Below are positions 52,945-62,189 of a stretch of DNA of 64,000 nucleotides, piece after piece. Numbering within the stretch: the first letter of the stretch is position 1; every line of letters begins with the position of its first letter. Position numbers and translations under genes: made by a program. The stretch lies in assembly GCF_058153355.1 (NCBI RefSeq), contig NZ_CM177019.1; one strand, 5' to 3'. The notes under the pieces were generated by a model. It was not told the DNA's origin and did no database searches. It was given only the letters and a program-made list of their open reading frames with translations.

Positions 52945-54309
52945 ATGCTGCTTTCAGACCTTGCCATCAGGCGCGCGAAGCCGAAAGAAAAGGCTTATAC
53001 ACTCAATGACGGTAACGGGCTTTCGTTGCTCATTGAGCCGAACGGTTCGAAAGGGTGGCGACTGCGCTACAGGTTTGCAGGAAAGCCCAAAATGTTGTCG
53101 TTGGGTGTGTACCCTGATGTGTCTCTGTCTGATGCCAGGGCGGCAAGGGATGAGGCTAAAAGGCTTCTTGCTGGTGGTATAAATCCAAGTGAGGCCAGAA
53201 AAGCCCAAAAGCGAGAACAGGCGAGCAAATTTGGCAATACTTTTGAGGGTATCGCTCGCGAATGGTACGAAAAGCGGATCGACAGGTGGTCATCGTCATA
53301 CGCCGAGGAAATGATCGAGACGTTTGAAAAAGACGTTTTTCCGTACATTGGCGGTAGGCCGATCGCAGAAATTAAGCCGATGGAATTGCTGGCGGTTCTT
53401 TCCCGTCTTAATGACCGTGGTGCGACTGAAAAATTGCGTAAGGTTCGCCAGCGATGTGGCGAGGTGTTCCGGTACGCAATCATCACCGGACGCGCCGAAT
53501 ATAATCCAGCCCCTGACCTGGTGAGCGCATTTGCTCCACATAAAAAAGAGCATTACGCCTGTTTGAAGGCCGATGAACTGCCGGAATTTTTCCGCGTTTT
53601 TAATACGTACACCGGAAGCCAGATCGTCAAACTGGCAATGCGGCTATTAATTCTGACAGGTGTCAGACCCGGGGAATTACGGCAGGCAGAATGGCGGGAG
53701 ATCGATTTTGATAATCGTTTGTGGGAAGTGCCTAAAGAACGAATGAAGATGCGCCGTCCGCATTGCGTGCCATTACCAGAACAGGCGATAAAAATACTGG
53801 AGCAGTTAAAAAACATGACAGGTCAGTATCAGTTTATTTTCCCCGGTCGTATTCACCACAGTAAACCAATGAGTGAAATGGCAATGAATGTGCTCATTCG
53901 TCGTATTGGCTACGCCGGGCGCGTTACTGGTCATGGATTCCGGCACACCATGAGCACCATTTTGCATGAGCAGGGCTATAACACCGCGTGGATAGAGACA
54001 CAGCTTGCGCACGCCGATAAAAACTCAATTCGTGGCACATACAACCATGCGCAATATCTGGATGGCAGACGCGAAATGCTCCAGTGGTATGCCGACTATA
54101 TGGATTCGCTCGAGCATGGCGGAAATGTGGTGCATGGTGAGTTCGGAAAATGCGGGGGACTGGTTGAGTATACAGTAGTAGACTTTGAGCGACTAAAAAC
54201 GGCTGTGTCTAGGGTCGCTCCTGAAAACCCGTACACCTCTGCGGGCTGGCACAGCCACTATGGTAGAGGGCGCGAGGTGACGCGTGATCGATATTGCCGA
54301 ATTACTTAA
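52945..54309 (+). CDS. P4-family (tRNA-targeting) tyrosine integrase, about 454 aa
   Basis: Start MLLSDLAIRRAKPKEKAYTLNDGNGLSLLIEPNGSKGWRLRYRFAGKPKML is the classic P4-type Int N-terminus (arm-binding domain). Catalytic R..HxxR..Y region present (GHGFRHTMSTILHEQG; RGTYNHAQY). Lies 165 bp after the tRNA 3' end. Confidence 0.9.
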   Translation: MLLSDLAIRRAKPKEKAYTLNDGNGLSLLIEPNGSKGWRLRYRFAGKPKMLSLGVYPDVSLSDARAARDEAKRLLAGGINPSEARKAQKREQASKFGNTFEGIAREWYEKRIDRWSSSYAEEMIETFEKDVFPYIGGRPIAEIKPMELLAVLSRLNDRGATEKLRKVRQRCGEVFRYAIITGRAEYNPAPDLVSAFAPHKKEHYACLKADELPEFFRVFNTYTGSQIVKLAMRLLILTGVRPGELRQAEWREIDFDNRLWEVPKERMKMRRPHCVPLPEQAIKILEQLKNMTGQYQFIFPGRIHHSKPMSEMAMNVLIRRIGYAGRVTGHGFRHTMSTILHEQGYNTAWIETQLAHADKNSIRGTYNHAQYLDGRREMLQWYADYMDSLEHGGNVVHGEFGKCGGLVEYTVVDFERLKTAVSRVAPENPYTSAGWHSHYGRGREVTRDRYCRIT

Positions 54310-54604
54310 CGCAGAAAAGAATAATTTCATTAGCCTGAGAGAGTTAATAGAGCGTATTAAATTATCTCAACCGAAAGCTACTACATCCCAGATAGTAAGT
54401 TTTCTTTATCAGACGCGGCAGAAATTACCCGAATGGGTTAAGTGGGATGAAATGATGGGCATTGAGCAAACATCGGAGAATCCTTTTGATGGGGATTGGT
54501 CTTTATCAGAGGTTCTTGAAGGCATTTTAAGACTAGGCTTTGTGCCAGAGGTTGAAGATTCTGTACCCCTCGCTATCGATGATAGCGACGATATTCCGTA
54601 TTGA
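54284..54604 (+). CDS. hypothetical protein (106 aa) with SSB-like acidic C-terminal tail ...DDSDDIPY; AT-rich cargo
   Basis: GTG start at 54284 six nt after GAGGTG, overlapping the int 3' end; about 40% GC versus about 52% backbone; C-terminus LAIDDSDDIPY resembles the SSB DDDIPF tip. Confidence 0.55.
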   Translation: MIDIAELLNAEKNNFISLRELIERIKLSQPKATTSQIVSFLYQTRQKLPEWVKWDEMMGIEQTSENPFDGDWSLSEVLEGILRLGFVPEVEDSVPLAIDDSDDIPY

Positions 54605-54623
54605 TGAAGACTTAAGGTGAATT

Positions 54624-55067
54624 ATGGCAGATGAAGTTTATTTGGCTCGTGCTTGTGATAAGTATGGTTTTCGTCGAGCAGAGCTTAAAGAATTTGCTGA
54701 AAAACTAGGGGTTAATTTATTTTCCCCAATGGATGAAATAACCCAGTCCATTCCTGAGGTTGCTGCTAGTGATTCTTTGAATAATGGGCCGACTGTTGAT
54801 GAATTACGTGCGGAAATTGCTTTACTTAAAGCGCGAATTGAAGAACTTGAAAGCGAACGACCAATTCTCTTAAATAAATACAGGGATAATGATCCGCTAT
54901 ATCTGGCTATCGAGATTAGAAACAGAGAGTGGGCCAATTACGACCCGGAGAATGATCGCGCCACCAGGGGAAACCAGGGCGCGATTACTACTGAGCTTGA
55001 AAAACGAGGTTTTACCTCCCGACAGGCCGCATCTATTGAGCTTGTCGCCTGTCCTATCAAACGATGA
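54624..55067 (+). CDS. hypothetical protein (147 aa), predicted coiled-coil centre; AT-rich cargo
   Basis: ATG at 54624 with AAGGTGA RBS 6 nt upstream, 19 nt after previous stop; LRAEIALLKARIEELESER heptad-like segment. Confidence 0.55.
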   Translation: MADEVYLARACDKYGFRRAELKEFAEKLGVNLFSPMDEITQSIPEVAASDSLNNGPTVDELRAEIALLKARIEELESERPILLNKYRDNDPLYLAIEIRNREWANYDPENDRATRGNQGAITTELEKRGFTSRQAASIELVACPIKR

Positions 55068-55080
55068 AGCCTTACCCTAG

Positions 55081-55230
55081 AGGTATCTCATGTTTTGTTC
55101 GCGTCTCACCCTAAGGGTAATCAGACCTCACCCTTAGGGTATTTTTGTATGCTTTCCCATCAATTTTACTATTACCCTTAGGGTAAAAATATTCCCGATT
55201 ACCATTAGGCCTGAGGGTATGAAAATATTC
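55081..55230. promoter_or_regulatory. array of near-palindromic ACCCT(A/T)AGGGT motifs upstream of alpA (putative operator array)
   Basis: taccctagaggta (55081), caccctaagggtaat (55115), cacccttagggtat (55137), tacccttagggtaaaa (55181), cctgagggtatg (55218); spacings about 23, 43 and 36 bp. Confidence 0.55.
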
Positions 55231-60438: not shown

Positions 60439-60647
60439 ATATCAATACGGTTCTGGCGAGCCGCTTACCCTTAACCGCATTCAGTTTCGTGAGAAATTCA
60501 CCGGGCAGCTACTGGTCAATGTGGATAAAGGTCGCGTGGTGAGTAATTACCACCTGCCAGATGAAGCAATTGTCGCAACAAGGGAATCATTACAGGAACT
60601 CGCAGAACGTGCCGGAATGATTAACGCGAATATTCAGGGGGTGAAAC

Positions 60648-60848
60648 ATGAATAATCATGAAGCGCACTTACCTGTAGTGCTGAATGTGCCGTCAGATTA
60701 TACAGGACGCGTACTGGTTTACCTGGATAAAGGGAAAGTGAAATCACAATGCCGACTGAAAAGTAATGAGATTGTTGGTTCTCCTGAATTTTTTTCTGAA
60801 CTCTGTATTCGTGCGGAAATAAAACCGGAACTGCTGACAGGAAAATAA
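60648..60848 (+). CDS. small hypothetical protein (66 aa), paralog of the IS-disrupted upstream ORF
   Basis: ATG overlaps previous stop (CATGAATAATCATG); VLVYLDKGKVKSQCRL aligns with LLVNVDKGRVVSNYHL of the upstream ORF. Confidence 0.5.
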   Translation: MNNHEAHLPVVLNVPSDYTGRVLVYLDKGKVKSQCRLKSNEIVGSPEFFSELCIRAEIKPELLTGK

Positions 60849-60852
60849 AACC

Positions 60853-61152
60853 ATGAAAAAGAAAAATTCTGGCTTTACTGCCAGCGGCCCCGCTCGGCCT
60901 GAAATCAGACACGGAGATATTTTCCGGGATAACTACGGCGGTACGGTAACGATTAAAGGCGTGGCAGAACGGCGCATCACTTACCGCCGTGAAGGCTACG
61001 ACTATGACTGCGTGATGCCTGTTTATCAGTTCCGGCGTGATTTTTCGCTGGTACAGGCCGCGCCACGCAAACAGTCCACCAGCAGGGAAAAGGCGCGGGC
61101 AAATATTCAGGAAATGAAAAACATGCTTAACGCATTCAGGGGTAAAAAATGA
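60853..61152 (+). CDS. hypothetical protein (99 aa)
   Basis: 4 nt after previous stop; stop overlaps primase ATG (AAAAAATGAAAC); basic C-terminus. Confidence 0.5.
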   Translation: MKKKNSGFTASGPARPEIRHGDIFRDNYGGTVTIKGVAERRITYRREGYDYDCVMPVYQFRRDFSLVQAAPRKQSTSREKARANIQEMKNMLNAFRGKK

Positions 61153-62189
61153 AACTGGCACCGAACGTAAAAAAACAGCCACGCGGAATAAAACACGCTC
61201 AAACCGAAGTGATCATTTTTGCGGGTAGTGATGCCTGGGCACACGCGAAACAGTGGCAGGAACATGACGCGCGTACAGCCGGAGATAATGAGCCTCCTGT
61301 GTGGCTTGGAGAGCAGCAGCTATCCGAACTGGATAATCTGCAAATTGTGCCGGATGGCAGAAAATCAGCACGCATATACAGAGCCGGACATCTTGAGCCT
61401 GTAATGATCAAGGCGATTGGTCAGAAGCTGGCGGCGGCAGGCGTACAGGATGCAGATTTTTACCCTGAGGGAATGCACGGTCAGAAGGTGGAAAACTGGC
61501 GCGAATATCTGGCCCGTGAGCGCCAGAATCTTTCTGATGGTCTGGTGATTGAGCTTCCGGTAACGCAAAAGGCGCAACTTTCGCAGATGGCGGACAGTGA
61601 GCGCGCGCAGCTGCTTGCCGATCGCTTTGATGGCGTTTGCGTGCATCCTGAAAGTGAAATCGTTCACGTATGGCGCGGCGGGGTATGGTGTCCGGTCAGC
61701 ACAATGGAACTGAGCCGCGAAATGGTGGCGGTTTATTCAGAACACGGGGCCACATTCAGCAAGCGGGCAATTAATAACGCCGTTGAAGCGTTAAAAGTTA
61801 TTGCTGACCCGATGGGCGAGCCGTCCGGCGATTTGTTGCCGTTCGCCAATGGTGCGCTTGACCTGAAAACGGGGGAATTTTCCCCGCACACGCCGGAGAA
61901 CTGGATCACCACGCACAACGGCATTGAGTACAGGGCACCAGCACCAGGGGAGAACATCCGCGATAACGCGCCAAACTTTCATAAATGGCTTGAGCACGCA
62001 GCCGGAAAAGACCCGCACAAGATGATGCGCATATGCGCCGCGCTGTACATGATTATGGCGAACCGCCACGACTGGCAGATGTTTATTGAGGCCACCGGAG
62101 ACGGCGGGAGCGGCAAGAGCACTTTCACGCACATAGCCAGCCTTCTGGCAGGGAAACAGAACACGGTAAGGCAGTATGACTTTCCGTGA
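61149..62189 (+). pseudogene. P4-family primase/helicase (D5_N + SF3 helicase P-loop), 3'-truncated just after Walker A
   Basis: LLPFANGALDL...H..WL.....D.....ATGDGGSGKSTFTHIASLLAGKQNT is the primase-C / D5 N-terminal region followed by GxxxxGKS/T Walker A. A complete protein would carry Walker B and motif C; here the frame ends 8 codons later where IS110-family sequence starts. Confidence 0.7.

Follow-up and report, generated by a model that had tools for sequence, protein, structure and literature searches.

A probable phage-inducible chromosomal island, disabled by insertion sequences, beside the glyU tRNA gene of an Escherichia or Shigella genome

Phage-inducible chromosomal islands (PICIs) of Gram-negative bacteria are organised in four zones, Integration-Bro-Replication-Late, and this co-oriented scheme separates them from prophages (PMC10111431). 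Their AlpA protein is the activator that is induced by a helper phage (PMC6092414, PMC11773190), and the PICI EcCIMP1 excises, circularises and is transduced only with a helper phage (Kapi1), for which both alpA and int are required (PMC11773190); the only other island of this kind whose dependence on a helper, from induction to packaging, has been demonstrated is EcCICFT073 (PMC6092414). Matches to the C4 and isrK RNAs are already known from the Bro zone of several Gram-negative PICIs, and a translational block combined with premature termination is the established mechanism of P1 immI and of P4 immunity (P1 and P4 literature, summarised in PMC10111431). Here, a stretch of 64,000 nucleotides (nt) from contig NZ_CM177019.1 of NCBI RefSeq assembly GCF_058153355.1, termed the window in its full length, is analysed with respect to the island that follows its glyU tRNA gene. 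In all probability, this region comprises those parts of a Gram-negative AlpA-type PICI that serve integration, regulation and replication; the element sits at the 3' end of glyU and has been disabled by mutation. The visible portion is approximately the left two-thirds of a phage-parasitising island of an already known kind: its satellite family has been described before, as has its type of RNA immunity, and the present member is in decay.

The published order of the zones in Gram-negative PICIs, i.e., int, alpA, a Bro-type gene and replication genes, is matched by the island, which opens with the following features.

52707-52780, + strand: tRNA-Gly(CCC), glyU (ARAGORN, the sole tRNA in the window; Rfam tRNA model, 69.6 bits)
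52763-52781, + strand: attL core of the attachment (att) site, TTCCCTTCGTCCGCTCCAA, 19 nt at the 3' end of the tRNA
52945-54309, + strand: P4-type tyrosine integrase (Pfam Arm-DNA-bind_3, Phage_int_M and Phage_integrase, E 1e-26 to 1e-33)
55288-55485, + strand: alpA, 65 amino acids (aa) (PF05930, E 2e-19)
55564-56364, + strand: antA, AntA/AntB-family (Bro-network) gene, 266 aa (PF08346, E 2e-22; PHROG anti-repressor families)

The integrase gene faces inward beside the att site, being located on the + strand 164 nt past tRNA-Gly and co-oriented with the major downstream island genes. From position 52945 on, all major open reading frames (ORFs) occupy the + strand, and the gene junctions of the operon overlap by 4-8 nt. 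Between the integration and the replication zones sits a Bro-network zone that comprises the AntA-domain gene and a frame containing the Phage_ASH domain. Upstream of the tRNA lies the E. coli ygeV-xdhABC-actS block. Since the domain E-values of the island components range from 1e-15 to 1e-35, chance is ruled out for the domain assignments. A preceding sequence-only reading had proposed the architecture int, cargo, alpA, antA-like gene, control region, small genes and primase, and every one of these parts was recovered at, or a few bases from, the place assigned to it. This holds for the pairing of a P4-type integrase at a tRNA site with an AlpA regulator, for the antirepressor-like gene and likewise for the coupled operon ending in a primase-C/D5-helicase protein, which is borne out by overlapping small ORFs, a DUF4222 gene and a D5_N domain (E 2e-15). 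By analogy with the islands studied in PMC6092414 and PMC11773190, AlpA would be expected to act as the master activator of the element.

Intact relatives at glyU are present in E. coli ETEC1738 (L001) and SA31-1 (L002), whose integrases are 99% identical to that of the window at the aa level, while AlpA is 100% and AntA 88-94% identical to the respective copies. No second copy of the 19-nt att core occurs in the window, which thus holds attL only; in L001 the core recurs as attR 14.06 kb downstream and delimits the island, and the sequence expected for the downstream attR core of the window element is TTCCCTTCGYCCGCTCCAA. Beyond the primase, L001 and L002 encode ProQ/FinO, PerC, a protease-like DUF2213 protein and a protein whose N-terminus is terS-like; next comes the ETT2 secretion-system region. 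Two further islands (L006 and L007), located between cspD and clpS, encode SSB, a fusion of a ClpP protease and a major capsid protein, and a DUF1441 gene. Late zones are present in the relatives L001, L002, L006 and L016. Because int, alpA and antA resemble those of the glyU islands L001 and L002 (88-100% aa identity) and the primase module resembles that of L006 and L007 (87%), the window element is a mosaic. Exact-protein look-ups with the truncated primase, an IS-fused small ORF (IS, insertion sequence) and an extended integrase returned only short-read contigs that end at IS elements; among complete E. coli genomes none covers at least 80% of the region, and a search for literature on a described glyU island yielded nothing specific.

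The island resembles EcCIMP1 in its layout: EcCIMP1 likewise features an inward-facing int adjacent to a tRNA gene, alpA, an antA/AntB gene, an ash/icd region, overlapping small ORFs, a DUF4222 gene and a primase, and the identities between window and EcCIMP1 amount to 66% for Int, 81% for AlpA and 60% for AntA. The differences concern the integration site, which is tRNA-Thr in EcCIMP1 and glyU in the window, and the primase, which is of the TOPRIM/DUF927 type in EcCIMP1 and has no detectable similarity to the window primase. Moreover, EcCIMP1 lacks the two-gene module next to int and instead has one hypothetical gene between alpA and antA, and it is intact, with a length of 20 kb, P22-like ejection-protein genes and PerC. 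With PICIs of the EcCICFT073 type (PMC6092414), the window shares the Integration, Bro and Replication zones in order and orientation as well as AlpA; two IS elements and an altered int distinguish the window copy from canonical Gram-negative PICIs.

This homology bears on the question of whether the region might be a generic integrative island or a prophage remnant without any past dependence on a helper. The markers visible in the window are only int, alpA and a primase, three-marker sets of this kind ('Type C' of SatelliteFinder) are possibly non-satellites, and no hijack gene lies within the window. However, the co-oriented order of int, alpA, Bro and replication genes is the very arrangement that distinguishes PICIs from prophages (PMC10111431), EcCIMP1 as a close homologue is a proven PICI, and the relatives are bounded by att repeats at approximately 14 kb and contain late genes but neither tail nor lysis genes. 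Accordingly, an ordinary island or remnant is considered very improbable. The proposal of a phage satellite disabled by IS elements, on the contrary, fits all of the evidence, i.e., gene order, homology to EcCIMP1, the relatives of the primase and the late zones of related islands.

As to the kind of satellite, the sequence-only reading had left the choice between a PICI and a P4-like element. A satellite in the strict P4 sense would remodel P2-type capsids with Sid and Psu and would be activated by Delta and Epsilon. Likeness to P4 is indeed evident throughout the island: the integrase is 38.5% identical to P4 Int, AlpA 37% to P4 Vis, the immunity region 38.6% to the P4 cI/eta region and the D5_N region of the primase 36.7% to P4 alpha, and a C4/CI RNA is present. 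Yet the order of integrated P4 (P4 record) is int, cII, gop/beta, cos, psu-delta-sid, vis, eta/cI, epsilon, alpha and att, so that P4-type hijack genes would be expected between int and alpA and not beyond the primase; the sequence-only reading had placed sid and psu beyond the window. The int-alpA interval spans 1.1 kb in the window and holds only two ORFs, neither of which has a counterpart in Pfam or PHROGs or gave a tblastn match with sid, delta or psu of P4. Furthermore, no window protein matches P4 epsilon, so that all four genes sid, delta, psu and epsilon of P4 are missing from the window. No alignment with P4 alpha was obtained for residues 1-140 of the primase, and beyond this gene the relatives possess a late zone, which is absent from P4 and in which no P4 late homologues occur. 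A strict P4-like identity was rejected, as it is contradicted on a defining feature, the psu-delta-sid block between int and alpA, and its probability is regarded as next to nil. According to the authors of SatelliteFinder, P4-like elements and PICIs cannot be told apart by int, alpA and a primase alone; for the window, the separation is achieved because both gene order and relatives differ from P4. Hence, the PICI half of the earlier alternative stands, while its P4-like half does not.

The replication zone of the PICI consists of an operon into which two IS elements have inserted.

57969-57999, + strand: first 31 nt of a 69-aa ORF (phrog_340), cut by an IS66-family element
58000-60468, + strand: IS66-family element, 2469 bp, tnpA/tnpB/tnpC (absent from L003; annotation of matching E. 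coli copies)
60477-60655, + strand: remaining 179 nt of the 69-aa ORF
60648-60848, + strand: 66-aa ORF, paralogue of the split ORF (phrog_340)
60853-61152, + strand: DUF4222 protein, 99 aa (PF13973, E 2e-24)
61149-62170 (ORF to 62189), + strand: primase/helicase, N-terminal 340 codons of approximately 584 aa (D5_N; partial TIGR01613, P4 family)
62171-64000, + strand: ISSso6 (IS110 family), transposase at 62248-63423, normal end at 63688

The primase is 87% identical at the aa level to the intact enzyme of L006 and carries the Walker A motif GDGGSGKST. Its similarity to P4 alpha is confined to residues 141-338, the C-terminal half being absent. Among the relatives of the primase in the phage database, many are satellites, such as vB_KppS-Ant, Pasteurella Pmp7/8, P4 and Streptococcus Javan elements. 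The closest relative, vB_KppS-Ant with 16.5 kb, raises the possibility of a capsid-forming PICI (cfPICI), which would build small capsids of its own and borrow only tails: int, alpA and primase are shared with cfPICIs (PMC10085698), and relatives with the same primase type do carry capsid genes. The window does not reach the late zone; in the primase-sharing relatives L006, L007 and L016, which encode the protease/capsid fusion or a capsid and a decoration protein in addition to DUF1441, the annotation is devoid of portal, terL and head-tail connector genes, and the same cfPICI-specific genes are missing from the annotation of the glyU relatives L001 and L002. The capsid-forming variant is thus deemed improbable, if slightly less so than an island without any helper. 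In one of the relatives mentioned, E. coli BH100N (L006), two CRISPR-DR4 repeat matches at 20244-20331 lie near clpA and a serine tRNA and are unrelated to the island.

Both breaks noticed in the sequence-only reading, in the replication gene and in one small ORF, could be mapped precisely by comparison with uninterrupted copies. For the IS66-family element, the reference was an IS66-free short-read contig from another sample (L003), which represents the same island at 99.98% identity and contains the intact 69-aa ORF at 9298-9507; apart from this element, the sole difference in 5.4 kb is a T to G exchange at 54157. The insertion created an 8-bp target duplication, CCTTAACC, at 57992-57999 and 60469-60476, the ends of the element read GTAAGCG/CGCTTAC, and 2.5 kb were thereby added to the operon. 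Comparison with intact primase genes revealed that ISSso6 entered after nt 1022 of the primase with a 2-bp AG overlap at the junctions, which severs the protein approximately 20 residues past Walker A, just beyond the P-loop; the sequence of the missing 3' half begins AGCGCTGAGATGACATCG. As the helicase half of the primase has been removed, the island cannot replicate by itself. The lengths of their homologues are retained by alpA, antA, the immunity region, the 66-aa ORF, the DUF4222 gene and both int-proximal ORFs. Helper-driven transfer of the window copy would be residual at best, and the description of the element as probably immobile is reasonable.

The control region between antA and the operon is an antisense-RNA immunity module of the P4 CI / P1 C4 type and contains the features below.

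56357-57976: control region, 1.6 kb
56357-57976, + strand: eta-like open frame of 539 codons, ending as the nested icd/kil-like gene
56755-56961, - strand: conserved small ORF, 68 aa (51-57% aa identity to annotated hypothetical genes of L001 and L002)
57019-57198, - strand: small protein of the YlcI/YnfO family, 59 aa (NCBIfam NF041551, E 7e-18; phrog_949, E 7e-22)
57220-57299, + strand: the repeat GTGGCTGACA in three exact copies, at 57220, 57265 and 57290 (repeat search)
57506-57583, + strand: isrK-like leader RNA (RF01394, 68.8 bits vs a gathering score of 50)
57646-57733, + strand: antisense immunity RNA of the C4/CI family (RF01695, 79.9 bits vs a gathering score of 45, full-length model match)
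57788-57976, + strand: icd/kil-like gene, 62 aa (NCBIfam phage_ICD_like, E 3e-18; ATG at 57788)

The hairpin loop of the C4 RNA, UCCUUCAGA, is exactly complementary to 57769-57777 and thereby to a site overlapping the Shine-Dalgarno sequence of icd (GAAGGAGG at 57772-57779, read directly from the sequence), and 8 of its 9 bases also pair with the leader at 57547-57554. In addition, the junction segment ACGCCAA of C4 pairs with UUGGCGU at 57531 and 57738. Such a geometry of two segments and two targets is known for P1 c4, where a'/b' face a1b1 and a2b2, as well as for P4 CI, where seqB faces seqA and seqC. The isrK-like leader, the counterpart of P4 seqA and P1 a1b1, ends in an intrinsic terminator at 57563-57583 (terminator scan) and is overlapped by a c4-a1b1 match of 32 bits that remains under its gathering score. 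The similarity of the translated immunity region to the P4 cI/eta region has an E-value of 2e-18, and the icd regions of P1-like phages are matched as well.

Upstream of the RNAs, a promoter scan located a sigma-70-like site, TTGACG-17-TAGTAT, at 57260-57288 between the YlcI/YnfO-like gene and the immunity RNAs, which is bracketed or overlapped by the GTGGCTGACA repeats; these repeats are candidate operators and the site is a candidate constitutive promoter. A second promoter-like site is present at 57470-57499, and a TATAAT is found 15 nt 5' of C4. The YlcI/YnfO-family gene and the 68-aa ORF run divergently from the immunity promoter. By eye, the YlcI-like protein looks like a putative ribbon-helix-helix protein, and within the 68-aa ORF substitutions are commonest at the codon phase that corresponds to its third position, which is clearest in comparison with L001.

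In several respects, this arrangement parallels P4, the immunity region of which is likewise preceded by an alpA-like gene and consists of a long ORF that encloses the immunity RNA and ends in a small kil/icd-like gene; the RNA is complementary to sites on both sides, and the replication operon ends in a D5-type primase. In contrast to P4, the frame in the window follows an extra antA gene, extends over 539 codons and has two minus-strand genes inside (the YlcI/YnfO-like gene and the 68-aa ORF). P1/P7 immI shares with the window a C4-family RNA, a two-segment (a/b) complementarity, a downstream target over the ribosome-binding site of icd and an Icd-like protein, but its antirepressor gene is situated downstream of icd, whereas in the window replication genes follow downstream and the Ant-family gene lies upstream.

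The ATG of the 539-codon frame overlaps the antA stop by 8 nt (CATGTGTAA), and the frame runs antisense through both minus-strand genes and subsequently through isrK and C4. It is free of internal stops, compared with 29 and 33 stops in the other + frames, while 2000 dinucleotide shuffles gave a mean of 21 stops and a minimum of 8. Family matches begin only at residue ~345, including the Phage_ASH domain at residues 381-487 (E 4e-35). More than 1500 homologous proteins were found, the best 120 of which measure 306-534 aa and are in many cases named 'Icd-like'; in 5 of 5 aligned homologues the frame is open, including cases in which a different sequence occupies its middle segment. Within the first 394 nt, substitutions relative to L002 number 16, 19 and 19 by codon position and thus lack codon periodicity.

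Translation of P4 eta, which reportedly comprises some 199 codons, is said in work of Forti et al. from 1999 to start from an upstream late promoter and to block immunity-specific termination. The summary in PMC10111431 likewise has eta translation prevent this termination. The parallel with the P4 eta/kil arrangement is the reason for taking the frame as a read-through device. Tentatively, it may stay open as a 'ribosome track' rather than for the sake of its protein, with translation coupled to antA, so that ribosomes would escort polymerase from the AlpA-activated promoter past the antisense genes, the terminator and C4. If this were true, the track would flip the island from RNA-enforced silence to replication, and it would amount to an elaboration of the P4 eta device at three times its size, widespread in enterobacterial PICIs and at present annotated as oversized 'Icd-like proteins'.

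In the resting state of the intact element, promoters within 57260-57630 would transcribe the isrK-like leader and the C4/CI-type RNA. The processed C4 RNA would then pair via its two single-stranded segments with the upstream leader site and the downstream icd/kil ribosome-binding site; blocked translation of icd would uncouple transcription from translation and cause termination before the small ORFs, DUF4222 and the primase, which would keep the island quiescent. Upon induction of alpA by a helper phage, upstream transcription would pass alpA and antA into the 539-codon frame overlapping the antA stop, and ribosomes on this frame would carry RNA polymerase across the immunity region, as P4 eta does, such that the replication operon is expressed. 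Subsequently, Int would excise the island, and a downstream late zone like that of the intact relatives would redirect helper capsids.

Several points weigh against the assignment to a helper-dependent PICI and its proposed control. The late or hijack zone, the cos or pac site and attR all lie beyond position 64000, so that the satellite-defining functions of the window copy are outside view, and the case for the element is one of sequence throughout. What the sequence establishes is the anatomy, the homologies, the RNA complementarities and the IS junctions, from which the regulatory steps, the dependence on a helper and the loss of mobility are inferred. The RNA switch would seem to be an optional module, given that C4 and isrK fall under the gathering score in the relatives L001, L006, L009, L010 and L012, and its role in PICI control is proposed by analogy with P1 and P4. 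The long frame overlaps two apparently real minus-strand genes, the third codon positions of which coincide with its own in the middle part, and part of its openness could thus be a shadow-frame effect. Finally, 'immobile' is too strong a term, since deletion of pri-rep in EcCICFT073 lowered transfer approximately 100-fold but did not abolish it (PMC6092414).

For satellite biology in general, little is gained from the locus, as AlpA-type PICIs, their mosaicism and occasional C4/isrK immunity RNAs have already been described. Its value lies mainly in annotation: an 11-kb non-core block beside glyU in an IS-rich Escherichia or Shigella genome is accounted for, the element is recognised as unable to replicate, and its supposed cargo turns out to be a module that several genera keep at this position. 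Specialists may find leads in the int-alpA RNA with the two-gene module, in the very long frame of the immunity region and in the recurrent insertion of ISSso6 at one nucleotide of the primase.

The interval between int and alpA comprises three features.

54202-54269, + strand: int-alpA RNA motif (RF02996, 45.5 bits vs a gathering score of 35.8)
54284-54604, + strand: ORF106, first gene of the module (46% identical to the syntenic Yersinia ORF)
54624-55067, + strand: ORF147, second gene of the module (C-terminal domain strongly conserved)

The RNA motif recurs at 13605-13672 in L001, at 13604-13671 in L002 and at 8569-8637 in the Yersinia island L012, in each case directly 5' of the gene pair, and since this position is kept in Escherichia and Yersinia it looks like the 5' leader of the pair. 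ORFs of ~100 and ~150 aa are located between int and alpA in the examined islands of Salmonella (L010) and Yersinia, while many E. coli carry the two as a single fused protein of ~250 aa, to the N-terminal part of which ORF106 corresponds. ORF147 has 76 homologous clusters, all named ones of which stem from Enterobacterales genera. Neither ORF has a match in Pfam, PHROGs, PADLOC or NCBIfam or by PDB sequence; the AlphaFold model of ORF147 is all-alpha (pLDDT 72), and a fold search with it gave no significant match. Because the position is conserved across genera, the module is a conserved component of this island type rather than strain-specific cargo; in the sequence-only reading it had been labelled cargo. 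A defence system in this interval was considered and rejected in view of the missing PADLOC match and the synteny across genera.

The T-to-G exchange at 54157 converts the TGA stop of the integrase into GGA, as judged from the IS-free allele in L003, and extends the protein by 50 residues beyond the native ORF of 404 aa, which ends at 54159. The additional codons read through the int-alpA RNA motif and overlap the start of ORF106. The mutated allele is also present in sample SRR31441161, and the IS-free allele is represented by SRR8656992.

On the minus strand at 56380-56491, a promoter-like sequence, TTCACT-17-TATAAT (matching at 10 of 12 positions), precedes a strong intrinsic terminator at 56413-56388. 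This site would yield a candidate RNA of ~75 nt from 56456 to 56380, located shortly beyond the antA stop and antisense to codons ~8-33 of the long frame. In L001, L002 and L009, the 141-nt segment in question is 99% conserved, although the sequence around it reaches only 86% identity in L002. The candidate RNA has no match in Rfam, and with copies that are 99% identical covariation is uninformative.

ISSso6 interrupts PICI primases at an identical nucleotide, with ACAGTAAG to the left and CGCTGAG to the right of the cut, in the window (62171), in L005 (15981/15982) and in L016 (16050/16051). The interrupted primases belong to three loci, i.e., glyU (window), cspD-clpS (E. coli VL40) and proL (E. 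coli O121 201805972). A single primase::IS allele is common to VL40 and O121 (99.4% over 2653 nt), whereas the left flank of the window differs at 13 of 298 positions and the IS itself at 0 of 1518 positions between the window and VL40. The recurrence reflects either site-specific re-insertion by the 'RNA-guided' transposase of the IS110 family or spread by recombination; a search for guide-like complementarity between the 3' end of ISSso6 and the primase target found only the palindromic AGCGCT.

The ISSso6 copy is 100% identical to annotated copies. At 63484-64000, its 205-nt 3' non-coding end is present in at least 2.5 perfect copies, arranged in tandem and running off the window, and the unit begins with AGCGCT, the hexamer of primase sequence that normally follows the IS. 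The array suggests recombination at an internal pseudo-target or, alternatively, an assembly artefact. Elsewhere, most ISSso6 copies have a single 205-nt unit, and one VL40 contig matches over a longer span in more pieces.

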